Shown: in pieces, positions 23,407-40,601 of the stretch | How positions within the stretch are numbered: the first letter of the stretch is position 1 | Layout: every line of letters starts with the position of its first letter | Source: Candidatus Omnitrophota bacterium | Lineage (GTDB): Bacteria > Ratteibacteria > UBA8468 > MWAK01 | DNA length: 40,712 nucleotides | Reading direction: 5' to 3' | Assembly: GCA_043797665.1 (NCBI GenBank) | Contig: JAZDPL010000029.1 | Location: 1-40,712, forward strand | Position numbers and translations under genes: made by a program | The notes under the pieces: model-generated | Database searches by the model: none | What the model was told of the DNA's origin: nothing | Seen by the model: only the letters and a program-made list of their open reading frames with translations

Positions 23407-24458
23407 GGGTCATTCCCGGCGACGGCGTTGGTCCGGAGATTATCCGGGAAGGTTTGAAGGTTCTGGAAGCGGCCAAGAACAGATTCCACCTCAAGTACGA
23501 ACTGGTCCACTACGATTTCGGCGGCGAACGCTATCTTAAGACCGGAGAAATATTGCCGGACAGCGCCCTGGACGAGTTCCGGAAATTAGACGCCATCTAT
23601 TTAGGAGCGGTGGGTCATCCGGACGTCAAACCCGGCATACTGGAGCACGGGCTCCTTCTTAAAATCCGGTTTGCCCTGGACCAGTACATCAATCTGCGGC
23701 CGGTCAAACTCTACCCCGGAGTTTGGACGCCCCTCAAAGACAAAGGACCGGACGAGATAGATTACGTTGTGGTCCGGGAAAACACCGAAGGCGCTTACTG
23801 CGGAATCGGCGGCGCCTTCAAAAAAGGGACCCCGGATGAGGTTGCGGTTCAGGAAGAAATCAATACCCGTAAAGGTGTGGAGAGGTGCATCCGCTACGCC
23901 TATTGTCTGTGTCAACAGCGGAACAAAAGAAAAAAACTGACTCTTTGCGACAAAGCCAACGTGCTGACCTATGCCGGAGACCTCTGGCGTCGAACCATGG
24001 CGGAGGTCGGTGCGGAATTTCCGGATATCCGGAAAGACTATGCCTTTGTTGACGCAACCGCGATGTGGATGGTAAAAAATCCCGAATGGTTTGACGTCAT
24101 CGTGACCAACAACATGTTCGGCGACATCATCACTGATTTAGCTGCGGTTACCCAGGGTGGTCTGGGGATTGCTGCGGGCGGAAACATCAACCCGGAAGGC
24201 GTCTCAATGTTTGAGCCCATTCACGGTTCCGCGCCCAAGTACACCGGCAAAAACGTCATTTGTCCCTTGGCCACGATTTCCGCCGGTGGAATGATGCTGG
24301 ATACCTTAGGCGAAAAAGAAGCCGCGGCCGCCATTGACTCTGCAATCGCCAGGGCAACCGGTGAAGGACACATTAAGAGCTTAGAAGCCGGGAAGATGGG
24401 TCTTTCCACCTCCGAATCCGGCGACCTCATCGCCCGCTTCCTCTCCGATACGAAATAG
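23379..24458 (+). CDS. leuB: 3-isopropylmalate dehydrogenase
   Basis: GDGVGPE, RENTEG, DKANV, NMFGDIITD, EPIHGSAP; position in the leu operon. Confidence 0.95.
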   Translation: MGKSQSYKIGVIPGDGVGPEIIREGLKVLEAAKNRFHLKYELVHYDFGGERYLKTGEILPDSALDEFRKLDAIYLGAVGHPDVKPGILEHGLLLKIRFALDQYINLRPVKLYPGVWTPLKDKGPDEIDYVVVRENTEGAYCGIGGAFKKGTPDEVAVQEEINTRKGVERCIRYAYCLCQQRNKRKKLTLCDKANVLTYAGDLWRRTMAEVGAEFPDIRKDYAFVDATAMWMVKNPEWFDVIVTNNMFGDIITDLAAVTQGGLGIAAGGNINPEGVSMFEPIHGSAPKYTGKNVICPLATISAGGMMLDTLGEKEAAAAIDSAIARATGEGHIKSLEAGKMGLSTSESGDLIARFLSDTK

Positions 24459-24547
24459 TCATTGCACGGGTACCCTTACAGTTACGGGTCCCCTACCAGT
24501 TGTAATCTGGTAGGGATCGGTAAGGGGCATAGTATGCGTGGCAATCT
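24458..24547. repeat. GTCATTGC...GGCAATCT palindromic repeat with nested hairpin
   Basis: Inner TCCCTACCAG/CTGGTAGGGA stem; paralog of 22841-22901. Confidence 0.75.
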
Positions 24548-24555
24548 TGTACCTC

Positions 24556-24587
24556 TGTCATCCCTGCATGTTTTAAGCAGGAATCCA
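24556..24587. repeat. TGTCAT(T/C)CC-GCATG-type palindromic repeat
   Basis: TGTCATCCCTGCATGTTTTAAGCAGGAATCCA, with compensatory changes relative to the 12120 and 19581 copies. Confidence 0.8.
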
Positions 24588-24598
24588 TACAAAATTTT

Positions 24599-24672
24599 TG
24601 GGAGATCGTCTAACGGTAGGACTTCAGACTCTGGATCTGAGTATGGTGGTTCGAATCCACCTCTCCCAGCCA
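24599..24672 (+). tRNA. tRNA-Gln (anticodon CTG), CCA encoded
   Basis: Acceptor TGGGAGA/TCTCCCA, anticodon arm TCAGA-CTCTGGA-TCTGA, T arm GGTGG-TTCGAAT-CCACC, 3' GCCA. Confidence 0.96.
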
Positions 24673-26262
24673 GGTTGTACGAATTGCCTCGAGAGCCTCA
24701 TTTTGCCCTTGTCCTGCCTGCGTTTCCGGTGGTTCGAACCTTAGAAATTCTTTCTCGAGGGGAGGATATACATTTGCAATAGGTTGTAGCCATTCATTGG
24801 CTTCTATGCTTAGTTTTCCGTCTTTTATTGTCTGGTTCGAACCTAACGCCATCAGTATTTCTCTCTTGGTTTGGGTGTCACCCTCAATAAATGCCTTCCG
24901 GGCATAGGTTGCAAAGTTAAAAGCCCTCTCTGCCAAATCCACCCAGTTGTCTGTCTTTGCCTCGGTTTCTCGTAACCTCTCTTTCAATTGGGTTATCTCA
25001 TTCTGAAGATTGTTGCGCCGTGCGTTATATTCTTCATCAGTAATTAATTCCTTGCACCGCATGTCAATTAGATTATCCAGGTGTTTCTGGGCATCAATCA
25101 GAACCTTGTGATGTGTTTCATAAGCCATATTCCTGCCTTCACTCTCTTTATCGTCTGCCGCACGTAAAGCTTCCAGTGCCCAATTCCTGAACTCCGGAAG
25201 GATAGTATATTTTTTTAATTCGTTTTCTATCTGCAATTCCAGAGCCTCTGCTCTTATTACTTTTGTCTGAGAACACCGAAAATCCTTTTTCCTCCGGGTA
25301 CAAAAATAGTAGGTATAATGTCTTGTTTCGCCTGTGCTTTTTATCAATTTGGTTTTGGTGTCAGCTGTAAAAAGACAGCCGCATTCTTCACAACGTATTA
25401 ATCCTGTAAATGCAAAGTTATGTTTTTGAAATCTCGGTTTTCCTTTTCTGCCAAGAAGTAGCTGGACCCGGTCATATTCTTCCAAGGTGGTCATTGCTTC
25501 ATGACTACCTTTATGCTGAACACCCTGGGAATCAGTGATAATTCCTGCATAGAACAGATTGGTGAATATATTGTAAATACTGCTTCTCGGCAGTTTGTTA
25601 CCTCCCATTTTCCTGAATTTCCTTGTTCTGAAACCCCATTTTTCATTGGCTATCTCAAGAATCTTGGGTGGAGTATAACTACCGGCAAGCATTAAATCCC
25701 ACATTTTCCTGAGAAGGGGAAAACGTTCAGGGTCTTTGACAATTGTCTTTTCTATCTTGTCGTTTAAATATCCCAGGGGAGCCAGATTAGGCAGCCAGCC
25801 TTTTTGAACTCTTTTTTCCAGCCCTCGTTTTACATTTCGGCTTAGATCCCGTATATACTGGTTGGCCATGCCACTTTCAATTGCATACAACAGGACATTG
25901 TCTTCGGGTAAATATTCCCGGGTTATTGTCTGGATTGACTTGATTACACCTTTTTGCAACATCCAGCTGACCCTGGCGCTGTCAACAGGATTTCTTGCCA
26001 GACGGTTTATTTCCCAGCACAGAATACCCTCGACTTCGCCATCTTCTATCTTTTGAATTAAGGCATTAAATACAGGTCTTTTTCCTGGCTCTTTGGCAGA
26101 TTTGGCTTCTGTGAAAATTTCTTTAATCAGGAGATTCTTATCCTTGGCCAGTTGTTTCATCCGGTCAACTTGGGCCTCAATCGACTGAACCTGGCGGTCT
26201 TCGGATTCCGAGGACTTTCTAGCATAGAGGAAATACCTTATTCTTTCTGGAATCTTTTCCAT
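24610..26262 (-). CDS. Large serine recombinase (resolvase, recombinase, Zn-ribbon and coiled-coil domains)
   Basis: YARKSS catalytic motif, NRLARN, APLGY, N.FYAG, CEEC...YYFC...C. Start MEKI at 26262 behind GGAGG. Confidence 0.95.
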   Translation of the reverse strand: MEKIPERIRYFLYARKSSESEDRQVQSIEAQVDRMKQLAKDKNLLIKEIFTEAKSAKEPGKRPVFNALIQKIEDGEVEGILCWEINRLARNPVDSARVSWMLQKGVIKSIQTITREYLPEDNVLLYAIESGMANQYIRDLSRNVKRGLEKRVQKGWLPNLAPLGYLNDKIEKTIVKDPERFPLLRKMWDLMLAGSYTPPKILEIANEKWGFRTRKFRKMGGNKLPRSSIYNIFTNLFYAGIITDSQGVQHKGSHEAMTTLEEYDRVQLLLGRKGKPRFQKHNFAFTGLIRCEECGCLFTADTKTKLIKSTGETRHYTYYFCTRRKKDFRCSQTKVIRAEALELQIENELKKYTILPEFRNWALEALRAADDKESEGRNMAYETHHKVLIDAQKHLDNLIDMRCKELITDEEYNARRNNLQNEITQLKERLRETEAKTDNWVDLAERAFNFATYARKAFIEGDTQTKREILMALGSNQTIKDGKLSIEANEWLQPIANVYPPLEKEFLRFEPPETQAGQGQNEALEAIRTTWLGEVDSNHHTQIQSLKSYR

Positions 26263-26274
26263 AATAGCCTCCAA

Positions 26275-26346
26275 CAAAAAGGACGGCTCTGGTTAACCCA
26301 GCTCTACCCCTTACAGAAGGAGTAACATTCTGGCAGAACCGCCCTT
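26275..26346 (-). terminator. Stem-loop plus U-tract in the recombinase 5' leader (putative attenuator)
   Basis: Minus strand AAGGGCGGTTCTG...CAGAGCCGTCCTT followed by a T-run immediately before the RBS. Confidence 0.55.
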
Positions 26347-26396
26347 AAAAGACAAAAACCTTCTGCAACTTCTGAATAGAGAGGGTCAACAAATAT

Positions 26397-26425
26397 ATTA
26401 TACCAGGTTTTGTAAATGGTGTAAA
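26397..26425 (-). promoter_or_regulatory. Sigma70 promoter for the recombinase
   Basis: TTTACA-N17-TATAAT with extended -10 TG. Confidence 0.65.
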
Positions 26426-26435
26426 GTCACCAATT

Positions 26436-26627
26436 TTAAATATCAACGTCATCTTTTTTTTCTTTCTGGAAACTAACAGAATCGTTTTCTGTTTTAGGTT
26501 TGGCAAGTATTTTAATAAGTCGGATAAGTGAGACCCCTTTTTCATAAGCTTCTTCCCGACTGATATCCCTGCCGAACCTTTGCTTGTAAAGGTTCTGGAA
26601 CTCCTTGACCTGCGTTTCGGATAACAT
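26436..26627 (-). CDS. Small helical protein preceding the serine recombinase
   Basis: GAGGAG RBS; MLS...KEFQ.LYK..FG..ISREEA pattern, which I recall upstream of such recombinases. Confidence 0.75.
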   Translation of the reverse strand: MLSETQVKEFQNLYKQRFGRDISREEAYEKGVSLIRLIKILAKPKTENDSVSFQKEKKDDVDI

Positions 26628-26668
26628 GACTCCTCGTCCTGATAAAATCTGTATAAATCATTCCTTGC

Positions 26669-28069
26669 CTACTTTGCCAACATTTTTGTTAATTCTGGTT
26701 GAAAATCACAGAGTGCCAAAATACTGTTTTCACCCAAGCCACAACACGAACATTCTGGATTTTTTGTAGGAGCGAATTTGCGAATGTCGTTTTTTATCCC
26801 GTCATAATAAATCCACTTTTCTATCGGTTTTATTCCTGCAATCCAACACGCGATTTCCCAACTCGCAATTCCTGCTGCAATTGTATTCAATGGGATGACT
26901 TGCGGAGTAGGAGAAAGTGAAGTGTGGGCAATATATCCGGCCTTTTTTCTCATCTCTTTAAGATGCTCATCCATTAATTCTTGTTGTATCTCGTCCTGGT
27001 TGAGACCTCCACAACACTCAAAGCATGGATAACCTTCTTCTCTGGGTAGAAAAGTTTGTATCTGACAGCCTGCTGCCGCTATTTTTTCACCTTTTTCATC
27101 CATATAAATTCCTGTTGCTACATTTACCAATGGTTTTGCATACTGCGCACATATTCTATTTACTGAAACTCTGGTCCTGTCGTTATCAACCGCTAGCAGA
27201 ACTATATCTGCTCGTTTGACAGCATCAGAGATTTTTCTATCTTCATCTCTGAACTCTTTGTAGTGGGTTTTAACCCTTGCTTTTCTGTTGAATCTTTTTA
27301 TTGCCTGCGCAATAAATCCAACTTTCCTGTTCCCAATAGCTTTTTCTGGGTCATCTACAAAATAAAGCCTGTTGCAATTGCTCTTTTCAATTACATCATT
27401 GTCAACAATCTCAATTATAGAGAAGCCTATTCTGATAAGCTGATAAAGCAGGGCACTTCCCAGACCGCCGGCTCCTATCACCAGGACTTTTGCTCTTGTA
27501 ATTTTTTCCATGCCTTTCTCCGAGAAAGCAAGTGTGTTTTTTTCAAAAACCCCGCTTAAATTGGGTTCTACCTTTTTTTCCTTCCCAACCGAATAAATAC
27601 CATTCTTGCCAACTACTTCCATTTCTTTAAAATAATGAAAACTGCCGAAACCAAACGGAAATCTCGGTTTGTAGAGTCTTGCTGCAAAATCTCTCGAACT
27701 GGTGAAGACAATCTGGACTATTTGGGGTTTTTCAATAAATTTTCTGGTATTTTTGTAGAGTTTTTCTGCACCCTTATCATCAATACCTGAAAACCATGCC
27801 CTGTCAGTAAATTTGTGCCAATGCGCTTGTACTACAAGAGGTGTCCTTTCTTTGATTAAAAGATTATACAGTTTACAATCAAAGTTAATGTCTGTTTTTA
27901 CATAAGCCTCATTTCTTAACATTTCCTTCTGTTCCGGTTTCAACACAAACTTTATAATTCCCTTTCGATCGGAAAAATAACCCAGGCAGTAACATATTTC
28001 CTCTTTGCCATCTGGAATGGTTTGCTGTATCCTCTGAAGTTGCGAACCAGAAAGAGATAATTTAAACAT
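26669..28069 (-). CDS. JAB metallopeptidase - ThiF/E1 adenylating enzyme fusion
   Basis: N-terminal E...HWH-x8-SGID (JAMM). C-terminal GAGGLG, DND..EKSNCNR, VDN, CFEC and CSCC Zn pairs. Start MFKL at 28069 behind AAAGGAG. Confidence 0.88.
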   Translation of the reverse strand: MFKLSLSGSQLQRIQQTIPDGKEEICYCLGYFSDRKGIIKFVLKPEQKEMLRNEAYVKTDINFDCKLYNLLIKERTPLVVQAHWHKFTDRAWFSGIDDKGAEKLYKNTRKFIEKPQIVQIVFTSSRDFAARLYKPRFPFGFGSFHYFKEMEVVGKNGIYSVGKEKKVEPNLSGVFEKNTLAFSEKGMEKITRAKVLVIGAGGLGSALLYQLIRIGFSIIEIVDNDVIEKSNCNRLYFVDDPEKAIGNRKVGFIAQAIKRFNRKARVKTHYKEFRDEDRKISDAVKRADIVLLAVDNDRTRVSVNRICAQYAKPLVNVATGIYMDEKGEKIAAAGCQIQTFLPREEGYPCFECCGGLNQDEIQQELMDEHLKEMRKKAGYIAHTSLSPTPQVIPLNTIAAGIASWEIACWIAGIKPIEKWIYYDGIKNDIRKFAPTKNPECSCCGLGENSILALCDFQPELTKMLAK

Positions 28070-28070
28070 C

Positions 28071-28490
28071 TCAGACTCCTTTCTTGTATAAAAAGGGATT
28101 TGTAAAATAGACCCGTAATGTATTAAGAAAATCAAGCAGACTTACAAAATGTCTTCCGGGATGAAAACAAATCCACATATAATTTTCTGTATTGCTGAAG
28201 AGATTACTGTGTTTCCCTATGGATGCGTCATGCCAGTTTTCCAATTGTTTAAAACTTCCCTTAATTATTATTCTCAGATTACTTGGCGTATAGACCTCTG
28301 TTACGCTTGTAGTATCATATTGCTCCGGAATTATTATTACTATCGGGCACATCCTCAGATTGTATTGTGGTGGTAAGGAATAGTTTCGTATTCTTACCCA
28401 TGTTCCATCACTCGGGAAATCAACATTATCTGCTCCATATCTTGCCTGGAGTATTTTCATCTCTAAGGCAAGCCGTTTTAGATTTCTCAT
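28071..28490 (-). CDS. Prokaryotic E2-like (UBC-fold) protein
   Basis: WV.I.NY.LP..YN......I.IP..Y pattern of Prok-E2 (family E-like), W-I-C-F-H motif, SLLDFL helix; lies between the Ubl and E1 genes. Confidence 0.75.
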   Translation of the reverse strand: MRNLKRLALEMKILQARYGADNVDFPSDGTWVRIRNYSLPPQYNLRMCPIVIIIPEQYDTTSVTEVYTPSNLRIIIKGSFKQLENWHDASIGKHSNLFSNTENYMWICFHPGRHFVSLLDFLNTLRVYFTNPFLYKKGV

Positions 28491-28503
28491 GGTTCCCTTT
28501 CTG

Positions 28504-28529
28504 GAGAAGGGGGCGTGTGCCCCCTTCTC
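28504..28529. promoter_or_regulatory. Perfect 11-bp GC-rich hairpin between the Ubl and E2 genes
   Basis: GAGAAGGGGGC-GTGT-GCCCCCTTCTC. Confidence 0.7.
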
Positions 28530-28531
28530 GA

Positions 28532-28741
28532 TCAACCTTCATCCAGGTGGAAAAAACTGTCGAGTTCGGTTCCGTCTGCAATTTGGTATCTTTGATCAGG
28601 AGAGACAGGAACCATCTGTCCTTCTGGCGTTCTAAGACAGAGGTGTGTATCTTTAGGTGGGTTTACCATCGCCCTGAGATCCATACCATCTAATACCTCA
28701 GGAACCACGAACTCGCGTCCTTGGTACCTTATCCGCGCCAC
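28532..28741 (-). CDS. Ubiquitin-like (beta-grasp) protein with free C-terminal Gly
   Basis: About 70 aa, strand-strand-helix-strand pattern, ends ...FHLDEG-stop, first of Ubl-E2-E1. GTG start at 28741 behind GAGGAGGTG (alternative 28750). Confidence 0.72.
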   Translation of the reverse strand: MARIRYQGREFVVPEVLDGMDLRAMVNPPKDTHLCLRTPEGQMVPVSPDQRYQIADGTELDSFFHLDEG

Positions 28742-28754
28742 GTTTATCACCTCC

Positions 28755-29003
28755 TCAGATTCTTCCCTTCGGATTTAAACCATAATCTTCAAGGGTTTCT
28801 TTGTTTGTTCGGTCACTATGTCCTCTTGTCTGTTGCCCTGGTTCAAGATGTACTCTTGGAGTTCTTCTTTCCCTCTCTGTGTCTCTGCTTTCATCATCTA
28901 TGCTGTTTCTTTTCTGGCTTTCAGTTATGTGGGAATTCCCCCTTAATATTTTTGGAACCATGAAAATACTGAAGATTAAGCCGAACAGAGTGAAAGGGTC
29001 CAT
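28755..29003 (-). CDS. Small single-pass membrane protein with charged, probably disordered tail
   Basis: AGGAGG RBS; N-terminal FTLFGLIFSIFMVPKIL. Confidence 0.75.
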   Translation of the reverse strand: MDPFTLFGLIFSIFMVPKILRGNSHITESQKRNSIDDESRDTERERRTPRVHLEPGQQTRGHSDRTNKETLEDYGLNPKGRI

Positions 29004-29044
29004 TATGGCCTCCTAATGTTTTTTACCCCCTTTATTTAGAGCTT

Positions 29045-29302
29045 TCATCTAATTTTTTTAAAGCCAACAGACATAACAAATTTTTTGCCCAGAGGTCTCT
29101 TTGCCGAGAACAGCATCGTGGGCCTCATAATTTTCGTACAGGACAGAGACTTATACTTCTTAAATTTGAGGGAACTCTGTTTTACATAGGGCATTGGTTT
29201 CCTCTGTCCTAACGATGCCCAAAATGGACTATCTTTTATCTGAGGCAACGATTTAACTGGCAAAGGTTTCTGCATCAAGAAAATGTCATTCCATGAAAGC
29301 AT
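29045..29302 (-). CDS. Highly basic 85-aa hypothetical protein
   Basis: AAGGAGGTG RBS before ATG at 29302; 15 Lys, 2 Asp, no Glu. Confidence 0.6.
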   Translation of the reverse strand: MLSWNDIFLMQKPLPVKSLPQIKDSPFWASLGQRKPMPYVKQSSLKFKKYKSLSCTKIMRPTMLFSAKRPLGKKFVMSVGFKKIR

Positions 29303-29317
29303 TTCGATCACCTCCTT

Positions 29318-29401
29318 TTAACCGTACTTTAGTTCGTGTTTCAATATCTTCGGAACCATGAAAATGCTGAGAAGTAAGCTGAACAGTTCAAAAAAGCCCA
29401 T
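29318..29401 (-). CDS. 27-aa membrane micropeptide MGFFELFSLLLSIFMVPKILKHELKYG (not in ORF track)
   Basis: Manual translation. Overlaps the ATPase stop, has an AGGGG RBS-like sequence, and shares SIFMVPKIL with 28755-29003. Confidence 0.65.
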   Translation of the reverse strand: MGFFELFSLLLSIFMVPKILKHELKYG

Positions 29402-31415
29402 GGTCGCCCCTGATTAATTCTTCAATATTTCCTGCTTTCAGTAATTCGTGGACAAGACAGATGTGTATTTTTTCACTTTTTAGGTTATTCAATTTTTCCA
29501 TCACTGTTTTATCTTTGCAGGCAATTATCACTCCAATGCAGCCAGCAGCGAGGTCCTTGTCGACGTTAATTATTTCGTGGTCAGGGCACATGGCAATCGA
29601 AATGGCAATAATTCCTTTGTCTGTTTCAATGCCAAGGTCAAGAAATTTTCCATTAAGATTTTTTTCTATCTCGATTTTGTAACCCTTTCCCTTGAGGTGT
29701 TCTGAAATTTTGACTTGCCAGTATTCATGTTGAAAACCAGTTCCTCTACCAATATGCGGTTTGGGTTGCATACCTATTGCTGCATAGCCTTTTTCAGTCA
29801 GCACCGGGAACTTGGTCAAGCCACCTCTGCCGCCAAGATTAATCTCTTCTTCAATACACAGGCCTTTGCTTACAAGCGATTTGAAAATTGCTGTGCCATT
29901 TCCTGCTGACAGTCCCACATTCTTATAGTGTTGGGTTTTAAAATCATACGGACGAAAGTAGATATCCACGAGGATGTCTTTTTCTTTGGATCTTGCTCCG
30001 GTAGTGTCCTTTTTGACTTCTTCTTTTTTCCCCGGCAGAGGGATAGGTATGAAATTGGCATGCTGTTCCTTACGTTCTTGCGGTATGCCAAGTTCAGATG
30101 CGAAATTCTGCATATGCCTGGTCAATTCGTTAGCACTTACATTTTTTTCAATGGGAAAATCAGGAAAAACAACAAGAAAAGGATTTGGGTAGCGTGCAAA
30201 TCTCCCTATTGCCTGGCCTGGCTGCAACTGCCAGACAGTTTCTTTCTGTTCCGGCGTTAATCCTAGAGACTGCGAGAAGGATCGTATATTTTCTCCTTCC
30301 GAGAGGCTCATCATGATTCTCGTGTAGCAGTTTTTTACGCTATTGCAAAGAGATTCAGGTAGTTGGCAAGAAGATATGATTCCAATGCGAAATTCTCGGG
30401 CTTCCCTTGCCAATTGCGAAATTGTCAGGTCACCTCGCTGTCTTTCTATCTCGCGATTGAAGATTTCATTGGCTTCGTCGATGATGACAAGAATTGGAAA
30501 CGGTTCATTTCTGTTTAGAATTCCGGTTTGAAAAACATGGGCAAGCACCAGGGGGGTGAAATAGCTTCTTGCTCCTGTTCCCAAGCCATCCAATTCCAAA
30601 ACAACATTGTATTTTTTAAGCAATTTTTCAATGTTATAACCATGACTGCAATTCAGAGTGTTATATGCCCTTATTACCAGGGGGTTAATTCTGTTCAAAG
30701 ATGTTTCCTTAAATCTTGCGTCTCTTTTTATCAAGGGTTGCCTGTCTTCCTCTATTTTCTTTTTTAATTGAATCAAAGTTGGTGGAAATGGCTTTGTTTC
30801 TTCATAAAGATCATAAGTAAGTTTTGCTATGTAATTATCCGTACCTTGATAAAAGCCATACGCCTCAGCTGTTATGTTGGAAACAATCGGAATCCAGTCT
30901 TCAGGTGGCCCGGGAAAATCATATGGATTCCACCTCAGTAAATAGGGGGCGTCTTCTTTACAGCACCTAAACACCATAGTGTCTGGCAAAATCCTGATGA
31001 GGTGCCGGTAATCCTGTTTTAAATCAAAAATCAGACAATGTATGCCGAGTTTGTTGACTGCTGTTATTAACCTGTAGCAAAAAGTGGTCTTTCCTGCTCC
31101 CGGTCTTCCTGCTATTACACTTCCTTGATTTAATTCGTCTGGGTATAAGCCAAAAATGGCTGAAGTTTCGTTACATATGCCCAACCGAATTGGACCATCA
31201 ATTTCATTGGTTGGATAAGGTCTAAACGGATCTGGTTTTAGCGCATCTCTTACAAGGTAGGGGTTTATAAATTTAAATAACCGACTGTATTTTTCTGGTG
31301 TAGGGTCTGCGGTATAAGAACGCAATAGAGCCGCCACCGCTGGGATATTCTGGAGACCCAGTTTCTTTACAATGACAGCAGGTTCCAAAGGACTCGGTAT
31401 TTTTACCTGTTCCAT
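29388..31415 (-). CDS. HerA/FtsK/VirB4-superfamily (DUF87-like) ATPase with C-terminal winged-helix and restriction-endonuclease-like domains
   Basis: IAGRPGAGKT, IFDLKQDY, WNP, IIDEA, REAREFRIG...Q.P; tail SLVSKGL...GRGG...LTEKG and HEYW...IEK...LDL...AISI. Confidence 0.8.
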   Translation of the reverse strand: MEQVKIPSPLEPAVIVKKLGLQNIPAVAALLRSYTADPTPEKYSRLFKFINPYLVRDALKPDPFRPYPTNEIDGPIRLGICNETSAIFGLYPDELNQGSVIAGRPGAGKTTFCYRLITAVNKLGIHCLIFDLKQDYRHLIRILPDTMVFRCCKEDAPYLLRWNPYDFPGPPEDWIPIVSNITAEAYGFYQGTDNYIAKLTYDLYEETKPFPPTLIQLKKKIEEDRQPLIKRDARFKETSLNRINPLVIRAYNTLNCSHGYNIEKLLKKYNVVLELDGLGTGARSYFTPLVLAHVFQTGILNRNEPFPILVIIDEANEIFNREIERQRGDLTISQLAREAREFRIGIISSCQLPESLCNSVKNCYTRIMMSLSEGENIRSFSQSLGLTPEQKETVWQLQPGQAIGRFARYPNPFLVVFPDFPIEKNVSANELTRHMQNFASELGIPQERKEQHANFIPIPLPGKKEEVKKDTTGARSKEKDILVDIYFRPYDFKTQHYKNVGLSAGNGTAIFKSLVSKGLCIEEEINLGGRGGLTKFPVLTEKGYAAIGMQPKPHIGRGTGFQHEYWQVKISEHLKGKGYKIEIEKNLNGKFLDLGIETDKGIIAISIAMCPDHEIINVDKDLAAGCIGVIIACKDKTVMEKLNNLKSEKIHICLVHELLKAGNIEELIRGDHGLF

Positions 31416-31903
31416 GGCCTTATCCTTTCAGGAGGATTTTTCATAATAAACACGGGTTTCTCGTCGCGATGAACTGTGATATATTTTTTCTGGAGAAACG
31501 GCAAAAAAGTCACCGTTTTCCAGCAGTGCAGGCAGAAGAACTCAGTCCCTTTTTGTCTAACGTGTTGCCGGCAATGGAATAGACCGCATCTCTTGCAAGA
31601 AAAGTAATTCAAACCAGAAAAAATGTGTTTGCACTTTCGATTTTGACATCTTACTGCAACGACCGTCCCGTCTTGATTGATAATCAATCCGTCATGAAAT
31701 TCCTTGAATTTCGTAACCCCCTCGGTTTTAATCGAGCCCTCTGGTGTGAGAACAGAAGATTTTTCCTCGAAAGAAAGGATTGATTCATCTGGAGGGATGA
31801 TTTTGGTCTCCTTCCGTTCACTTTCCAGGTTTGAACCTCTCGCATTCAGAATTCTAAGGATGTCGTCCATCGGATCATTAGGTTGTGCAGGGTGTTGTGC
31901 CAT
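31403..31903 (-). CDS. Binuclear Zn-finger protein (AN1/B-box-like)
   Basis: C-x4-C-x11-C-x2-C-x4-C-x2-H-x9-C-x2-C; GGAGG RBS. Confidence 0.75.
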   Translation of the reverse strand: MAQHPAQPNDPMDDILRILNARGSNLESERKETKIIPPDESILSFEEKSSVLTPEGSIKTEGVTKFKEFHDGLIINQDGTVVAVRCQNRKCKHIFSGLNYFSCKRCGLFHCRQHVRQKGTEFFCLHCWKTVTFLPFLQKKYITVHRDEKPVFIMKNPPERIRPWNR

Positions 31904-31919
31904 TTTCTACCTCCGTTGG

Positions 31920-32240
31920 CTATACTGTCTGCATTTTTGAAAGCAGAGGTTTTTGTTCATTCACTTTCTTTTTTTCACCATACTTCAAAATAGCCTCAAC
32001 GAGCAAAAAGCAATACCAACAAAGGAAAAAGACGATTTTTTCTTTCTCATCAAGTGTGTAAGTTAAAGTAATAAAATCTATCGGTGGCAAGTGCTCCATT
32101 TTATTAAAGGAGTTGAGAGTTATAATTTTCTCTCCCTGTTTCCTGTGGCAGAGATAGCAAGAAGGTCCCGCTTTTTCATTTGCAAAATCTTCTTCTGGCG
32201 TCCCAGTCATATAGATTTTTTTGACTGTTTTCTTTTCCAT
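31920..32240 (-). CDS. C4 Zn-finger protein (ClpX-like treble clef), paralog 2
   Basis: CYLC...LCWYC followed by a helix; AAGGAG RBS before MEKK. Confidence 0.7.
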   Translation of the reverse strand: MEKKTVKKIYMTGTPEEDFANEKAGPSCYLCHRKQGEKIITLNSFNKMEHLPPIDFITLTYTLDEKEKIVFFLCWYCFLLVEAILKYGEKKKVNEQKPLLSKMQTV

Positions 32241-32271
32241 CTTCAACTCCTTTTTCAGTTTTTTTGGCTTC

Positions 32272-32592
32272 TTAGTTTGTTCTACCGACGGCAATATGCT
32301 CAGGGATAATCTCGTTGTCTTTTCCCACAACCATTTGGAGAATACCTTTTATTAGTAACCCGCACTCCTGGCAGATTATAAAGTTAAAACCATATTCTCC
32401 ATTTTGGACACTAAATCTGCTAAGCAATATGGGCGCCTTTCCGTGATAGCCTTTGGGAGTAAGAAAAAAACTTTCCTCTGAGCTGGTCCTTTTGCACAAA
32501 AAACAACACGGCTCGAAATCATCGTCCTGTACATCCTTTTGTGCAACTTTACCGGTCAGCAAAACTTCTTTTTCCTTATTCTCAGTTTTCAT
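32272..32592 (-). CDS. C4 Zn-finger protein (ClpX-like treble clef), paralog 1
   Basis: CFLC...ICQEC followed by a helix; AGGGAGGTG RBS before MKTE. Confidence 0.7.
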   Translation of the reverse strand: MKTENKEKEVLLTGKVAQKDVQDDDFEPCCFLCKRTSSEESFFLTPKGYHGKAPILLSRFSVQNGEYGFNFIICQECGLLIKGILQMVVGKDNEIIPEHIAVGRTN

Positions 32593-32649
32593 TTTTCTCA
32601 CCTCCCTTTTCCGGTTTTTGTAGATTACTCTCGTCTTCGATGGCATATT

Positions 32650-32711
32650 ACCATACTGCATAGTGTGGTGGTCTTAAGCGCCACTTAAATCCTGCTTAAA
32701 AACCAGTTAAA
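32650..32711 (-). promoter_or_regulatory. Putative activator-dependent promoter with four 11-bp-phased TTAA boxes
   Basis: CTTAAG, CTTAAA, CTTAAA and GTTAAA at 32673, 32684, 32695 and 32706; -10-like TATGGT at 32655-32650. Confidence 0.55.
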
Positions 32712-32746
32712 TTTATAAAGATCGCTGCCTATGCAGTAAAATTAAA

Positions 32747-33379
32747 ATGGTTTTTGTAGTAAAGAACGGAGAAGATGAATGGAAAGGGTATTTAATAGAT
32801 GGCTATCTCCCAAGTTTAAAGAATTTAAGAAGTATTTACAGGGAAGCATATGATCTCAAACCCATTCAGCTAACGCCAAATATGAAGAAATTGACAAGGG
32901 ATAATCTATTTACATCTTCTATGTTTAATATTATGATGGAGTATTGTAAAAAAGTTTCCCGGGAAAATCCAGAACTTTTAATAGAAGAACATGGCAGGTT
33001 ACAACATAAAAACTATTGCGACTCTTATTTATTGAAATTCCACAAAAATAGACCGATTGAAGTAAATAAGAAGCCTGAAATAATTAAAGATGCTTGTCTG
33101 CATTTACAAAAGGAATCCGATCTCGATAACAATAAAAAAGATTACCGCCAGATTCTGCTTTTTTCCCACTATTGCCCTAATTCAGAAAACTGTATAAATA
33201 ATGCTATTAAAAAAACAGGCTTCCGAATTAAACAACCAGAACAATATACGGATATTAGGAAATTTGAAAATGCTTGCGGCTGGTTATTAAAAGAGGAAGG
33301 TTTTAGTGTATTTATTTATCCTTGTAACGTTCTTGAAGAAAGATTAAAGGGACTAAATTTTGAATGTACAAGACCTTAA
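32747..33379 (+). CDS. Hypothetical protein
   Basis: 210-aa ORF in AT-rich DNA; no motif recognised. Confidence 0.65.
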   Translation: MVFVVKNGEDEWKGYLIDGYLPSLKNLRSIYREAYDLKPIQLTPNMKKLTRDNLFTSSMFNIMMEYCKKVSRENPELLIEEHGRLQHKNYCDSYLLKFHKNRPIEVNKKPEIIKDACLHLQKESDLDNNKKDYRQILLFSHYCPNSENCINNAIKKTGFRIKQPEQYTDIRKFENACGWLLKEEGFSVFIYPCNVLEERLKGLNFECTRP

Positions 33380-34338
33380 TCTTTGGGTATTATTAAACAA
33401 TATTTAAATTTATGTCCTTCGAAGTTTTCCTTTCTGATATAATAAACATCTAAATCTCTAATTGTTTCTTTAATCCCCCGGGCAGGCGTCTTTTCCATGT
33501 CTATTATTCCGCGCGTCCCGTGTTCTACAAACAAGTCAATCACTCCTTCTGTTAATTTAGAAACTCTATGCCTTGTTTGATGTATTAAATTTGAATTTGT
33601 TCCATCATCATTCCAAACTTCTTTACCTATATTCATGAATGTACAGGAACCACCAACATTTTTTAATACCAGAACCAAGAAATTCATAGGAATATCCTTT
33701 TCTGTGATTTTTTTGGGGACTCCTTTTGCGAAAAGTTGACAATTTTCGATGTCGAGGAATATATCAAACTGTTCCTCTTTCTCTTTTAAAGATAAATTTC
33801 GTAACTTTGTAACTTCTTCCTTTGTGATATCCTTGGGGTTTTCGTTATTAACATGTGAGTAAAATAAATAATCATATTTTTCTGTTTGTTCTGGTTTTAT
33901 GCTGGGTTCAAGAATTAATTTTTCTGGTTGGGTTTCTTTTGCTGTCATTATTTCTGTAATGTGTTTTGTACGAAGAAGTTCCAATACATGCTTTTGGTTT
34001 TCAGTAACACTCTTCAGTATCTCGTTTTGAAGCGTGATATCTGCCTGCATTTGAGTGCACGTCTTCTGGAGAAGACCGATCAAATCAGGATTTTTCTGAG
34101 AAACATCGATTTCCTTAAAACCCTTGGCAAATATCACTATCGCCTTCCATGCTTGTTCGCTGGTTTCTCCAATAAATTGCATTGGAAATTCCTCTTTGAT
34201 TCTAGATGGAGAAGAAGCAGCGCTTGAATCGATTGTTGTGAGATTGGCATTGACAAAGTCCCATGCCACGTTGAAAAAGTCATCTGTCACGTCAAAATGA
34301 CTTAGGACAAACTGTTTTACTATTCCTTTTAAATCCAT
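33376..34338 (-). CDS. Putative transcriptional regulator with C-terminal OmpR/PhoB-like winged helix
   Basis: IFLD......G..K.IT.....FL..VLKN.G.....I..EVW.......IHQ...RV pattern. No receiver domain recognised. Start taken at MDLK. Confidence 0.6.
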   Translation of the reverse strand: MDLKGIVKQFVLSHFDVTDDFFNVAWDFVNANLTTIDSSAASSPSRIKEEFPMQFIGETSEQAWKAIVIFAKGFKEIDVSQKNPDLIGLLQKTCTQMQADITLQNEILKSVTENQKHVLELLRTKHITEIMTAKETQPEKLILEPSIKPEQTEKYDYLFYSHVNNENPKDITKEEVTKLRNLSLKEKEEQFDIFLDIENCQLFAKGVPKKITEKDIPMNFLVLVLKNVGGSCTFMNIGKEVWNDDGTNSNLIHQTRHRVSKLTEGVIDLFVEHGTRGIIDMEKTPARGIKETIRDLDVYYIRKENFEGHKFKYCLIIPKD

Positions 34339-34360
34339 GACAATTAAAGAACTTTTGTGT

Positions 34361-35992
34361 TCACTGTTCCCTTCGTGTTTTGTTTGTGTTATTTGCAACC
34401 GAGGAAAAAATGAGGAATAGTACCATTGAAAAAATTATTCCTGATATAACTGAAGATATCGAGTGAGAAATTTGCGTCCTCAGATACATTCTGCCCTCCC
34501 AGTCTACATTTCTTCCCAGATTGTTGGTTATGAATACCCATCGGTTTATCAAGGGTACTATGTTGCTCATTATCCCCACAGTCACGCTGTATATGGTCAG
34601 AAGCTTGATGCCCTTTTTGTCATATTTGAACTCGTTTTTTGTGTATCTCAAAGGAAAGCACGCAAGAAAAACAAGCAAAAAGTACATTGTGAATGAAAAT
34701 GCAACAACAGAAAGGTCCTGTTGAGCAACACTCTTAAGGAGATTACCTGTCAGTCCCATAAGTATTCCTGCTGTTCCTGCGGTGAATACACCGACAAATC
34801 CAAATATTTCAAAATTTAGAAGACCTGTTTGTTGTTCTTCGATATCGGAACTGGAAGAGTCAAGAATTTTTAAGCGGCGTGAAAGTGCCGGGTGATAGGG
34901 AAGCCTACCCCGCGCACTGAAAATATTGAACGGCCGAAAAACTTCTAGAATGTGATGTCTTTTTACGTCAGTGAAACTCGATTCAGATGCAAACGAAAAA
35001 GAGGAATTTGAGCTTTTTTCTGCCAAGATAGACATTTTCAATATGGCATTTTTCAAAATATGGGCAGGGATATACCTGACAGCCACTAAATCTGCAAAAA
35101 CTTCGCATCGTTGCAAGCAAAGCGAAGCATACCGCCACCCCATACCGACAGCCACAAGAGAAGCAAATGATGTTATCAACAGCGTAAGGGGATATGGTAG
35201 AAAGTTCAATCGTTTCCCGACAGGTAGAAGCACATATCTTCCTTCCTGAAGAAAAAGGGTGAGTGCAATGAAGAGTGTAATCAAGAACCATCTATTCAAA
35301 ATCACTCTTGTAGCAAACGGAATGAAGTCATCTTTATTTGATACATGGCCGAATTCATGACATATGACAGCTTTCAGCTCATCAATTGAGATGACTCGTT
35401 TTGAAATGGCTTCTGGCATTCTGGCACCAAAAACAAGCAGAATAGTGCTCTTCATTCTTAAGACTGTACAATTGAAAGAAGAAAGCTGCGTGTTTCTTTT
35501 GTGAAAGAATCTAATTTCAACTTTTTCTTTCAGGGGCATGGCGGTTTTCACGCTGGTGACAGCATTTTCTATTTCTGCAATTCCACTCTTGAAATTTTCA
35601 TCTACATTAGATATAGAGGAAAGCGCAATATTGAGAAAACGGTTTTTGGTTGTGACATACAGGATAAGAGCAAGGAAAGGGAGAAATCCAAGAACATGAA
35701 TGCTTGCAATGTACAGAAAAAAATGCAAAAATCCAGCTTTTGTCTGTGTGTAGAGTTTGAAAGCAGAGGTGAATAACAAGGAGTAGAAACCTATTAATCC
35801 TTGTTCATTTCGAAGAACGCTGGTGGCATATGTCGCGAAAGGAACGAGGAGAAAGAATGAAAGAAGAATTTGAAAACCCAGCACATTTTCTGAAGTTCTG
35901 CTACCTTTTGAACTCCGAAGATACGCAGTGACGAAGAAGCTAATGATTAGAATGGGCGACGTATATATGATGAAAAATAGTAATGCAGCCAA
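34361..35992 (-). CDS. Multi-pass membrane zinc metallopeptidase, M48 (HtpX/Ste24)/M56-like
   Basis: ELKAVICHEFGH, E.FAD, HP....RL, many TM segments; TTG start behind AAGGAG. Confidence 0.85.
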   Translation of the reverse strand: MAALLFFIIYTSPILIISFFVTAYLRSSKGSRTSENVLGFQILLSFFLLVPFATYATSVLRNEQGLIGFYSLLFTSAFKLYTQTKAGFLHFFLYIASIHVLGFLPFLALILYVTTKNRFLNIALSSISNVDENFKSGIAEIENAVTSVKTAMPLKEKVEIRFFHKRNTQLSSFNCTVLRMKSTILLVFGARMPEAISKRVISIDELKAVICHEFGHVSNKDDFIPFATRVILNRWFLITLFIALTLFLQEGRYVLLPVGKRLNFLPYPLTLLITSFASLVAVGMGWRYASLCLQRCEVFADLVAVRYIPAHILKNAILKMSILAEKSSNSSFSFASESSFTDVKRHHILEVFRPFNIFSARGRLPYHPALSRRLKILDSSSSDIEEQQTGLLNFEIFGFVGVFTAGTAGILMGLTGNLLKSVAQQDLSVVAFSFTMYFLLVFLACFPLRYTKNEFKYDKKGIKLLTIYSVTVGIMSNIVPLINRWVFITNNLGRNVDWEGRMYLRTQISHSISSVISGIIFSMVLFLIFSSVANNTNKTRREQ

Positions 35993-36034
35993 TGTTTACT
36001 CCTTTTTAATAATATTTATCTCACGTTTTTCTAT

Positions 36035-37873
36035 CTAACTCGGAACGTTAAATATCATGACCGTCAATACCAATTCACGTTTCGGATCCCCAGGCTGGCG
36101 GAATATATAACGAAATTGAGTTGTATGGATGTTGGGTCCGATGTCAGCTTCTCTTTTATAACAAGCATGTTTTTTCACTACTTGGGGTATCATCGACTGT
36201 ATTCTACTCAAATCTCTGTCCTTATAAAATAATAAAATGGCTGTTTTGGTATCTCGCCAACTAACATAATTAAGAAGCTGGTCAATAGTTACTAAAAATT
36301 TCTTTTCTCCTCTCCAAAATTTACATTCCGCAATAAACACATTTTTCCCTTTCCAACGAATCAAAATATCAGTCTTTCCCTGATAATTGAAAGTTTCACC
36401 CGTAGCCTGTCCTTCATACTGTCCGTTTAGTTGAACCAAAAAGTGTTGCCGTAGATCCTCTTCCTTCATGTTTTTAAACGCACTTGGACTGCGTTCAATC
36501 ACCAATGCCATATTCTGAATAATTTCAAGTATGTTTTCGTATTCAGGTTCAAATTTTCCTGTTTTAACCTTCTTATTTTCCTCAAATTCTGAAAGAATTT
36601 TTTGGGTTGCAGAGCGTGATTCTTCGCGATTTCGTATATATGCAGGTTTGAGGGACTCCAGTATCTTCGCTTCCTCTCTTTTTGGAATATCTTCAAGTCG
36701 TTTATACTGTAAACTTGCATTTTTTAGATATAAAACGAAATTTTCTATAGCATCAAAAGCTTGTTTTCCCTGAATAAAGCCCATGTCTATTAAGGCTTTT
36801 TTTGTCTCTTCTATTTTTTTTGCTTGTTTTTCTATCTCTGCGAAATTAAATGTCATGGCGGCAACTATCTCTAAAAAACTAATTATTTTCTGCTTTCTCA
36901 ACGAAAGTATTTGGGGGAAAAGAAAATCTCTGGGTGTAAGTCCTAAGTCTGTGTTAATCTTTTCTGATTGTACCGCAACACTATGAGATACATTTAAGAT
37001 TTTTATAATCTCAGAAAAAGAATTTGCTTCAAATATCTCTTGAAGATAACTATCTAAATATAATATATGTCTCAAAACCCTCATTTCTGTTGCTATATTA
37101 CCCAGAAATGACGAAGGTCCTGCTTTTGGAAATGAAACAAAAGGTTTTTTAGTCTCACAAAACCTCTCATATAAATCTATGCTTTCATCCATGAGATGTT
37201 TTGCTTCTGTTACTTTATTCTCTCGCCAAAGGTATAACGAGTATATATATCGGCAAGTAAAAGTTTGGATGTCGAATGTCTTCATATAAATACTCGGGTT
37301 TTTTCGAATAAAGAATTTAAAGCATTCCAACGCTTTTTCAAAATTACACGTCAGCATGAAATATGTACCAAAATGACAGAGAAGGAATTGATTTCCGGGC
37401 ATGAGTTTTCTGGCCATTTGCAGATACTTGAACATTTCTTCGGATTGTCTTAATCTGCATGCTATAGAGCCGTTGATAACATTAGAAGCAAAATCATTAA
37501 ATCTATCCAGATACTTTTCAGCTTCCAAGAAAAATTTGATAGTTTCGGGTCCATCCTTTTCTTGTTTTTGAAAATATAATGAACCTTCAACGCTCATTAG
37601 TTCTGATAAAAACTCATGAATCATGCTACTATTGGGGTCGTATCGAAGTACATTATAAAGGATTTCGAATCCCTCCATTTCGAATAATTCGATTTGAGAA
37701 CGAACAAGTAAAATACGTGCATAATTTTTATCATTTTTAGTCATTACTCTTATAGATTTATCTTCTTCTTGTCCCAAAAACTTCTTAAGATAGTGTTTTG
37801 CCTGAGCATATTGATTGTTAAGAGTACATCCAATAGCTTTATTCAACAAGTCTAAATCTAATTTGTTTTTCAT
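36035..37873 (-). CDS. TPR-like protein with C-terminal PD-(D/E)XK nuclease-like domain
   Basis: Helical repeats (FEKALECF) at the N-terminus; C-terminal EEDLR...GETFN..GKTDILI.....FIAECKFW...QLL.Y..WRD. Confidence 0.7.
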   Translation of the reverse strand: MKNKLDLDLLNKAIGCTLNNQYAQAKHYLKKFLGQEEDKSIRVMTKNDKNYARILLVRSQIELFEMEGFEILYNVLRYDPNSSMIHEFLSELMSVEGSLYFQKQEKDGPETIKFFLEAEKYLDRFNDFASNVINGSIACRLRQSEEMFKYLQMARKLMPGNQFLLCHFGTYFMLTCNFEKALECFKFFIRKNPSIYMKTFDIQTFTCRYIYSLYLWRENKVTEAKHLMDESIDLYERFCETKKPFVSFPKAGPSSFLGNIATEMRVLRHILYLDSYLQEIFEANSFSEIIKILNVSHSVAVQSEKINTDLGLTPRDFLFPQILSLRKQKIISFLEIVAAMTFNFAEIEKQAKKIEETKKALIDMGFIQGKQAFDAIENFVLYLKNASLQYKRLEDIPKREEAKILESLKPAYIRNREESRSATQKILSEFEENKKVKTGKFEPEYENILEIIQNMALVIERSPSAFKNMKEEDLRQHFLVQLNGQYEGQATGETFNYQGKTDILIRWKGKNVFIAECKFWRGEKKFLVTIDQLLNYVSWRDTKTAILLFYKDRDLSRIQSMIPQVVKKHACYKREADIGPNIHTTQFRYIFRQPGDPKRELVLTVMIFNVPS

Positions 37874-38031
37874 ATCGCTTTATTTTATCACAAAAACAAA
37901 ACATTAGAACAATAAAAGCGCTCGCTTGGTTGATACCCATCTACCTCTGCCTGTGCTGTGTTGACTTTAATTCCGGATACTGCTAAAATAACTCCGGGAG
38001 TTAAACAGCAGAAATTGTCCAGGAGACCAAA

Positions 38032-39219
38032 ATGGCAAAAAAGAATAGTCTTGGGGAAAATTTATTCCTTGGGGTGCCAATTGCTATATTGAAAAACAAG
38101 ATTTTAGGAGTTCTTTTAGGGCTGATGTTAATAAGCAGTTTATCTTATGCTGTTGATATTAGCATTACTACTTTTCCTGAAGGTGCGTCGGTGTGGGGTA
38201 AGAAAAATGGGTTATCTGATAAGCTTATTGGCAATACACCTTTTACAACGTCAATATTAACTACAGTAAAAGTAACTGGAACTTATTCCACTTATTCGTG
38301 TGGGTTTTGGACGGGTGCGGACTTTAAACGGCATACCTTTTCTTCCCTCGTTCAAGATAACTTCCCTAATGGAATAATATTACAAATTGGAGGGAAAAAG
38401 TATATTAAAGATGAAATAACGAGAGGCAACCTCCAAAAACTTTATGGCTTGGCTGATTTTATTAAAGCAATGCGGGAATGTCCAAATTCCGGTGTTTGTT
38501 TAGGTACGGATGGACATAGTTCTTGGGATGAATCCGGTTTTTGTGATGCAGTGGAAATAAAAAGTGTAGAAATTACCAAAAGTTTTGATTACAATTTTAT
38601 TGTTATTAAAAAAGAAGGATATGAAAATTTATCAATTGAAATAGCAGAATTTGGAATCATGCATGATGTATCTATTTCTAAGAACCTAATAATGACCCCA
38701 AAATATTTCAGCGAAACAATGCTAACCTTAATTGCCAACAAAAAATATGAAGAAGCTGGAAGTCTTAGACAATATCAGACGGATGCCCTAAAAGCAGATC
38801 CTACTGAAGAACATAAAAGGCAACTTGCAAAACTCGAAAAACTGGTTGGTTTAGATAATTATAGCTTAATGATGTTAAGAGAAAAGTACGTGGCGGCAAT
38901 TGATAAAGAGGAATATGACAAAGCGCTAAAAATCAAGGAACTTATAGAAAAAGAAGAGGCTCAGTATAAACCAGAACTCGCACCAGCTCAGCCACAGACA
39001 ATTATAGTAACAGGAGGAGGACAAGGAGCTTCAGGCAGTACAACTTCAAGCGGTACGAGCAATGTTGTGGTCCAGCAAAAACCCTATTATGAATTGCATA
39101 ACATTGCAGAGGCTCTTGAAACAGCGAGAATAGTGGGAAAAAATCCGGATGCTTCTGTTTTAGAAAGGGCAGGAGCAGGTCTGCAGATTTTCGATGTATT
39201 GAAGAATCTTGGGAAATAG
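38032..39219 (+). CDS. Exported protein with an interrupted PEGA-like domain
   Basis: Signal peptide ending LSYA; I.T.PEGA.V...IG.TP, then IKKEGY more than 100 aa later; helical C-terminus. Confidence 0.65.
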   Translation: MAKKNSLGENLFLGVPIAILKNKILGVLLGLMLISSLSYAVDISITTFPEGASVWGKKNGLSDKLIGNTPFTTSILTTVKVTGTYSTYSCGFWTGADFKRHTFSSLVQDNFPNGIILQIGGKKYIKDEITRGNLQKLYGLADFIKAMRECPNSGVCLGTDGHSSWDESGFCDAVEIKSVEITKSFDYNFIVIKKEGYENLSIEIAEFGIMHDVSISKNLIMTPKYFSETMLTLIANKKYEEAGSLRQYQTDALKADPTEEHKRQLAKLEKLVGLDNYSLMMLREKYVAAIDKEEYDKALKIKELIEKEEAQYKPELAPAQPQTIIVTGGGQGASGSTTSSGTSNVVVQQKPYYELHNIAEALETARIVGKNPDASVLERAGAGLQIFDVLKNLGK

Positions 39220-39756
39220 CTTTATGTAATTCTAACTTCTTTTTTTTGATGTTCTTGAAAATCTCGGGAAATAGTACACAGAATAATATTCCTGGCGCAA
39301 CGTTATCCAGCCTAAAAGCATAAAAAATCATTTCAAGACAAGATTACCTTCCATTTTGGAATTTTTGCCCTCCTTTCAAATTGTATAGTTTTTTCTGTTT
39401 TGATTCAAGGATTTCCATGATTTACTGCAAAAGCTTTTCTCCGGTTAGAATTTAAGTTTGCTCGCAACTCCTCTTTTTGTAAGCAATTCTTCTATTTTTT
39501 TTCTCTTCATTGCCCAAGGGGTTGATTCGGGCTCTATTTAAACCATTCGTTCTGTGACTTAATTACTCGGGATATATATTGTTCCACACAAAAAACATAA
39601 AAGCCAATGTTGGGGTGGTTTTGAACATTTAAGTTTTTCGGTCTCACCTTCTTTTTTTCTGAAATAAGATAGCTCATAATTAACCTTTTTTGGAAGTTCC
39701 GTTCTCAAAAAAGGCGAAAGGCATAAATGAGCAATCCGAATCAATGCAGGAGCACA

Positions 39757-39915: not shown

Positions 39916-39916
39916 A

Positions 39917-40204: not shown

Positions 40205-40205
40205 G

Positions 40206-40544: not shown

Positions 40545-40601
40545 ATCCTTTTTTATTTTTTTATATTCAGAAAATTAAATTAAAGGGAGGTTTTAAGGAA
40601 G

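Follow-up and report, generated by a model that had tools for sequence, protein, structure and literature searches.

The window, by which we mean the whole 40,712-nucleotide stretch analyzed here, encodes on its minus strand a 27-aa hydrophobic peptide, pep27, whose start codon lies inside the 3' end of the gene for a large ATPase and whose first 21 codons duplicate the beginning of a second small open reading frame (ORF), p82. We tentatively propose, at a probability of roughly 0.4, that pep27 and p82 are short anchors of N-out/C-in topology that serve this otherwise anchorless ATPase. pep27 is probably a real, translated micro-ORF, seen in one genome, that would occupy a membrane slot of variable content in an element that has been little described. 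The features that bear on the argument are as follows, with coordinates in the window.

29318..29401, minus strand: pep27, 27-aa ORF; residues 3-20 hydrophobic, basic tail, LxxG end; start codon (ATG) 14 nt within the 3' end of the ATPase gene and preceded by Shine-Dalgarno (SD) pairing
28755..29003, minus strand: p82, 82-aa ORF; N-terminal helix as in pep27 plus a charged, probably disordered tail; singleton; Atlas model pLDDT 0.41
29343..29408, no strand assigned: direct-repeat copy 1 (66 nt), pep27 start region plus codons 1-20
28945..29010, no strand assigned: direct-repeat copy 2 (66 nt), p82 start region plus codons 1-20
29045..29302, minus strand: 85-aa basic ORF between the repeat copies, in frame with pep27, with a single TAA between them; homology of its 5' end to the ORF directly behind the ATPase of locus G029
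29388..31415, minus strand: 675-aa HerA/VirB4/T4CP-like ATPase whose C-terminal part is winged-helix-like and nuclease-like (labels based on the model and on motifs rather than on a family match)
31403..31903, minus strand: 166-aa Cys-rich (Zn-finger-like) protein, which usually accompanies the ATPase on its upstream side
28532..28741, minus strand: 69-aa ubiquitin-like protein (Ubl) with LDEG end; model pLDDT 89; top fold matches Citrobacter BubA, TM 0.71, E 0.016
28071..28490, minus strand: E2-like protein (Prok-E2_E match slightly short of the Pfam cut-off)
26669..28069, minus strand: JAB-like domain fused to ThiF/E1, BubCD-like
24610..26277, minus strand: large serine recombinase at the element end
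24599..24672, plus strand: tRNA-Gln(CTG), the integration site

A local duplication links pep27 and p82

Over codons 1 to 21, pep27 and p82 share 14 of 21 residues while 17 of the 63 bases differ, and five codons (4, 12, 17, 18, and 20) show synonymous differences only. The sequence-only reading had given the ORF coordinates (29401-29318 and 29003 onward) and translations exactly, and it had rightly seen that pep27 repeats the N terminus of p82, although over 21 codons only, and that the block SIFMVPKIL is identical despite synonymous changes; the three codon pairs it named (AGC/AGT, CCG/CCA, and AAG/AAA) are present. The two 66-nt copies are 74% identical at the DNA level, lie 398 nt apart, and form the longest direct repeat within positions 24000-40712. 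When pep27 was compared with the 108,846 open 21-codon frames of the genome that begin at a start codon, p82 was its best start-anchored match (14 identities; runner-up, 9), and a tblastn search over the genome gave E 1.3e-4 for the pair. Similarity beyond the repeat was not significant: p was 0.25-0.41 on the upstream side, and 0.90 and 0.18 on the downstream side. The duplication is thus real and local, covering the start region and 21 codons only. A duplicated unit that includes the ATPase 3' end, or a 398-nt tandem repeat, was rejected (p 0.18-0.90), and so was derivation of the pep27 tail from that of the ATPase (p 0.11). Elsewhere in the window, a 32-nt direct repeat (78%) at 39188-39274 duplicates the 3' end of a 395-aa gene.

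The substitutions are unevenly distributed. For codons 2-21, dN/dS is 0.19 (pS 0.61, pN 0.20), with a Fisher p of 0.007 that is optimistic, since similarity guided the choice of where the comparison ended. Codons 2-11 have a dN/dS of 1.0, most replacements there still being hydrophobic or small, and codons 12-20 have a dN/dS of 0, with four synonymous and no replacement differences. When all 17 differences were placed on a neutral copy in simulations, 0.13-0.18% of runs kept it open and hydrophobic with at least 14/21 identities; the probability rises to 5.6% if 12 differences are taken as neutral and 5 are assigned to a selected p82. Both copies were therefore probably under protein-level constraint during much of their divergence. 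This bears out the protein-level selection that had been suggested, as far as the shared block is concerned, but does not prove present selection on the 27-aa form, because the changes could have accumulated at a time when both copies were parts of longer genes.

pep27 as a probable gene and as a candidate membrane helix

The predicted SD pairing of pep27 (-7.1 kcal/mol, or -5.7 with a narrower window) is stronger than that of the ATPase (-6.1) and the E2 (-5.5) and weaker than that of p82 (-10.2) and the 85-aa ORF (-18.1). The pep27 stop directly adjoins the SD of the next ORF, a configuration to be read against the 60 of 308 SD sites that have a TAA at that position. Stop-overlapping ATG frames of 22-35 aa accompany 32 of the 1,612 long ORFs in the genome, and pep27 alone among them is this hydrophobic, by a threshold that was set by the finding itself.

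The hydrophobic core is short. By a membrane-insertion scale, 11-13 residues are strongly favorable and 19-residue windows are unfavorable, and the predicted pep27 helix would be marginal for a full membrane span. Both pep27 and p82 have an acidic N-terminal end and Lys/Arg residues behind the helix. According to the positive-inside rule, Lys/Arg following a hydrophobic run mark the cytoplasmic side; because of this charge pattern, the sequences point to an N-out/C-in topology. A lipoprotein is excluded, because neither ORF has a Cys and hence neither has a signal peptide with a lipobox Cys, and the earlier suggestion of lipid-anchored conjugation substrates accordingly has no basis.

The integrated element and its ATPase

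The genes sit in a low-GC mobile element that is integrated at tRNA-Gln and has the serine recombinase at its end, the GC content dropping from ~0.51 to ~0.39 beyond the tRNA. On the minus strand, the order is Cys-rich protein, 675-aa ATPase, pep27, 85-aa ORF, p82, Ubl, E2, and JAB-E1. The recombinase reading frame passes antisense through the tRNA (24610-24672), and a 20-25-nt sequence upstream of the tRNA (24560-24590) has dozens of copies in the genome, in the manner of REP or MITE families. The other element end may be marked by 17 nt near the beginning of contig C15 (G000 C15:230-246) that repeat the 3' end of the tRNA; a second tRNA-Gln region, on contig C44, showed no related element.

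The fold matches of the ATPase model are HerA, DndH, VirB4, and TrwB, and its best profile matches are weak, among them CedD at E 1.7e-9, which fell below the cut-off. The protein has no clear transmembrane segment. Neither VirB6, VirB8, a relaxase, nor CedA was seen in the part of the element that lies within the contig. Upstream of the Cys-rich gene, two adjacent ORFs of 136 and 129 aa (31920-32661, minus strand), each with a C-x-L-C-x-R motif and a further pair of Cys residues, are probable tandem paralogues. Further along, a 612-aa TPR-like protein (36035-37873, minus strand) matches PADLOC PDC-S54 over its C-terminal 170 residues (E 2e-81) and is followed by an M48 peptidase membrane protein and a 340-aa ORF.

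The slot behind related ATPases

A core of Cys-rich protein and HerA-like ATPase-nuclease with exchangeable downstream modules recurs at L045:4509-9530, L014:7545-14728, and L011:7548-15794; the modules are a Bub-like cassette, another E2/JAB/E1 set, or DUF2997-AAA-DUF1257, and the recombinases are of the serine or tyrosine type. We asked what lies directly behind related ATPases, using 16 whose sequence includes the stop. Duplicates and loci without the C-terminal part were not counted, and two loci reached the end of their contig. Five of the 16, an uncontrolled raw count, have a hydrophobic ORF with an SD that starts at most 250 nt from the ATPase stop. It overlaps the stop in L011, L014, and L053 and begins further on in L016 and L017. 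The other 11 have no hydrophobic ORF right downstream, some of these contigs ending early, and in L013 and L024 hydrophobic ORFs are located upstream of the ATPase instead. Conservation in related elements, which the sequence-only reading had made a test of its proposal, is thus positional in 5 of the 16 loci and lacking in 11, and it was not detected at the sequence level, with no homologue of either ORF found. Inspection by eye showed no Ubl/E2/E1 gene in L016, L017, and L053, and for this reason the membrane slot appears to track the ATPase more than the Ubl cassette.

The L011 locus, with an ATPase 40% identical to ours, has the same gene order as the window, with N-terminally hydrophobic, Gly-rich ORFs of 190 and 103 aa in the pep27 and p82 slots. 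The L014 counterpart in the pep27 slot has 164 aa and, like the 190-aa protein, consists of a helix plus tail; the counterparts of both loci contain Gly-rich hydrophobic hairpin-like segments. Where tested, positional counterparts had no detectable sequence similarity to p82. The two L011 membrane ORFs do not align with each other and were rejected as demonstrable duplicates. The closest ATPase, P0003 (75% identical), ends in an identical GLF tail that, at the protein level only, is compatible with the same overlapping start. The related ATPases P0003-P0006 cover a range of 53-75% identity and lie on contigs of 3-13 kb. In G029, the ATPase C-terminal part and the next ORF resemble those of the window with no peptide between them, and a DUF2997-AAA-DUF1257 module takes the place of the Ubl cassette.

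These comparisons bear on the strongest alternative, which we consider possible, if on the unlikely side, namely, that the element is a mosaic and pep27 the 5' end of a longer membrane gene, left behind the ATPase when the 85-aa cassette recombined in, or split off by a stop codon. By the same reasoning, and at the same strength, the codon bias would have been gathered while both copies were full genes, and the peptide may be translated and yet functionless. Several observations fit such a remnant. pep27 and the 85-aa ORF share a frame and are separated by one TAA plus five codons (a 1-in-3 coincidence as far as frame goes), homology to p82 ends abruptly at codon 21, the searches found no conserved short ORF, and L011 and L014 have long counterparts. 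Moreover, the slot is a swap site, holding Ubl/E2/JAB-E1 in the window and L011, a different E2/JAB/E1 set in L014, and the DUF2997-AAA-DUF1257 module in G029. However, a strong SD precedes the 85-aa ORF itself, whose 5' end matches the G029 ORF after the ATPase (9/19 identical, E 8e-5) with the same Met and the same SD, the DNA similarity holding at p 0.005 when SD and ATG are excluded. It is, then, not simply a cut-off tail, and it was also rejected as the tail of the L011 or L014 membrane proteins, which it does not resemble. The abutment of the pep27 stop on the next SD likewise looks like that of an ordinary operon gene, even if the frequency of TAA at such sites tempers this point.

pep27 and p82 as possible anchors for the ATPase

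Of the paired membrane subunits that had been suggested (pore, toxin/inhibitor, or ATPase anchor), an ATPase anchor fits best. It is supported because membrane ORFs also follow related ATPases at loci where no Ubl genes were seen, and it is weakened because 11 of the 16 relatives as well as G029 lack such an ORF and no homologue was found. We envisage pep27 as a real small gene, translationally coupled to the ATPase, that would be a tail-less paralogue of p82. Each protein may insert one short N-out/C-in helix into the membrane, with SIFMVPKIL as the surface by which the two might pack together or dock on a shared partner. That partner would most likely be the HerA/VirB4-like ATPase-nuclease, and the two proteins together may hold this motor, whether it acts in DNA transfer or in defense, at the membrane much as VirB3 does for VirB4. 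The lysine of the VPK motif would then be a positive-inside residue.

Small single-helix subunits of comparable design exist. KdpF is an accessory subunit of about 30 residues with a single helix, and TatA is an N-out anchor consisting of a helix and a charged tail. pep27 and p82 resemble them in size (~30 residues) or in design (helix plus charged tail), in predicted N-out/C-in topology, and in belonging to the operon of a large ATPase. They differ in that neither matches a profile and neither has the FG hinge or amphipathic helix of TatA.

A closer functional analogy is offered by VirB3, whose genes, according to PMC12857230, are small membrane genes adjacent to or overlapping virB4 and encode proteins of 10-15 kDa with two transmembrane helices, and by CedA1/CedA2 with CedB/CedD of the Ced system (PMC11868833). 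VirB3 is also characterized by binding to the N-terminal domain of its ATPase. Here, too, a small membrane gene adjoins the gene of a HerA/VirB4-family ATPase without its own anchor. The differences are nonetheless considerable. pep27 and p82 have 27 and 82 aa with one short helix each instead of two, their genes lie downstream rather than upstream of the ATPase, there is no sequence similarity, and the window ATPase carries the additional winged-helix/nuclease-like part. On our favored reading, pep27 and p82 would be a tail-less and a tailed form of one anchor that assemble with each other through the conserved half of the helix and work like VirB3 without being VirB3.

The ubiquitin-like cassette and its possible connection to the peptides

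The genes downstream of p82 form a cassette that resembles Bub operons without being a Type I Bub operon (6E.1). The JAB-E1 fusion resembles BubCD (E 3.5e-20), the E2 is of the Prok-E2_E type, and BubA is the top fold match of the Ubl, taking the Bub proteins as presented in PMC11601596. The assignment to Type I fails because Ubl and E2 are separate ORFs, as opposed to the BubAB fusion described there, and because BubE (DUF6527) was not found, with no Pfam match among 19 element proteins; the element runs off the contig, and a distant copy is possible. The window E2 apparently has a Cys where BubB has a Ser, and the excerpted text of PMC11601596 mentions neither a membrane peptide nor a HerA-like ATPase in Type I Bub operons.

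At the probable position of the catalytic Ser-x-His of Bub E2s, the window E2 reads C-F-H versus S-W-H in a BubB-like E2, the register of the direct alignment to BubB being tentative, and W-x-C occurs in the window E2 and most close relatives where a BubB-like E2 has Ser. All three E1s have a Tyr near residue 379, offset in L024, in what looks like a Bub-like loop; it is a candidate counterpart of the crossover-loop Tyr (Y370). The Cys of the E2 and the Tyr of the E1 would possibly allow a mixed oxyester/thioester relay. In the JAB part, HxH and an Asp are visible by eye, and a Prok-JAB match came only from the L024 relative and was weak. Variants of the cassette include a Ubl-like ORF in L024 (L024:5084-5302) without a terminal Gly, whose Phe-Lys-Tyr-containing tail overlaps the E2 start, and a stand-alone Ubl, E2, JAB-like, and E1 operon in L056 (L056:7339-9325) of four separate genes among housekeeping genes, the E2 of which is the BubB-like Ser type.

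As had been pointed out, pep27 ends in Gly, and its LKYG terminus is, in this one sequence, an LxxG end like those of the cognate Ubl (LDEG) and the L011 Ubl (LRNG). The peptide might therefore be a second substrate of the JAB-E1/E2 enzymes, adenylated at its C-terminal Gly and passed to targets, which it would tether to the membrane as a membrane-bound tag. pep27 has the C-terminal Gly with a hydrophobic residue at -4, its tail would face the cytoplasm, and LxxG ends are found in 6 of 1,587 long ORFs of the genome (Gly ends in 109 of 1,587). The Ubl has a beta-grasp fold in its model, which pep27, at 27 aa with one hydrophobic helix, lacks; type II CBASS offers a precedent, its E1-E2 enzymes acting on a conjugated protein that lacks the Ubl fold. 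We nevertheless consider this role improbable. The operon already encodes a good Ubl, the LxxG pattern was noticed after the fact, only ~7 residues separate helix and terminus, p82 and the membrane ORFs of L011, L014, L016, and L053 all lack a terminal Gly, and BubCD binds the beta-grasp body of the Ubl as well as its tail (PMC11601596). A combination of roles, to which we give a low probability, is that pep27 is a copy of the anchor helix that gained an LxxG end, so that E1/E2 could attach either the soluble Ubl or a membrane anchor, for instance to tether the ATPase or a phage protein on demand. Were pep27 conjugated via its terminal Gly, this would constitute a new protein modification, membrane anchoring by peptide-helix ligation.

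A defense function may be considered from another side, since Bub-type operons have been proposed to be antiphage (PMC11601596). p82 and pep27 might then form an effector with its truncated modulator, that is, a pore or depolarizing protein and an inhibitor or the reverse, as the output under the Ubl cassette. The Gly-rich hairpin-like counterparts in L011 and L014 and the presence of another PADLOC-type gene in the element agree with this, and the identical C-terminal halves of the helices would suit coassembly. Type I toxins and holin/antiholin pairs share features with pep27 and p82, namely, a hydrophobic peptide that is very short and has a basic tail, or long and short forms with a common helix. 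Here, however, there are two separate genes instead of two starts. No toxin, holin, or defense profile matched in Pfam, PADLOC, or NCBIfam (one unnamed PHROGs family gave E 0.037), the only Rfam match is the tRNA, with no antisense RNA family, and promoter-like sites number 15 against 14.6 expected from shuffles, with no own promoter found. The apparent coupling of pep27 to the ATPase stop is, moreover, atypical of type I toxins. We regard such a pair as doubtful.

Least probable of all, in our estimate, is that the VPK lysine is a Ubl conjugation acceptor in both proteins, as the sequence-only reading had offered. K18 is kept through a synonymous change, it would sit at the cytoplasmic membrane face, and the genes neighbor the Ubl. 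Against this, the entire nine-residue block is kept, not the Lys alone, no positional counterpart retains the motif, including those of L011 and L014 with their Ubl-type enzymes, and a Lys at this place is what the positive-inside rule predicts. Neither the acceptor idea nor the effector/inhibitor pair found specific support.

Searches for homologues

pep27 and p82 stand alone in the collections searched. p82 retrieved only itself among 5.8 billion proteins of 45-144 aa and a single chance match (E 0.094) in 60 related genomes; pep27 is absent from a collection of 15 billion proteins, and the 85-aa ORF had no homologue among proteins of 46-149 aa. In the Atlas, p82 had no match at or above 0.9 and the 85-aa ORF no usable one. 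The back-translated motif occurred neither in viral contigs nor in the 64 other genomes of the phylum, and an alignment of the two peptides gave a best E of 0.66 in five genomes with related ATPases. The scans of genome and metagenome contigs used the ATPase as query, and the large protein search was limited to sequences longer than pep27. The larger proteins are also sparsely distributed. Viral contigs contained no relative of the E2, ATPase, or E1, and plasmids contained no E1 match at 1e-25. Among the 64 other genomes of the phylum, the E1 profile matched none and the ATPase profile 3, the latter also matching 2/401 and 1/14 (the center genome only) in other samples; the E2 profile matched 1/401 genomes, at a locus whose examined stretch contains no such ATPase. 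A literature search that did not extend to supplements found no description of pep27 or of this element; related operons may be listed in Table S1 of PMC11601596.

Implications

The significance of these findings is useful but modest, based as they are on one genome. If pep27 and p82 do anchor the ATPase, a small unannotated gene would be added to this element, and with it a membrane-anchor slot that evolves fast, in a family of integrating elements that has been little described. The core of these elements pairs a Zn-finger protein with a HerA-like ATPase-nuclease, and the modules downstream of it are exchangeable.
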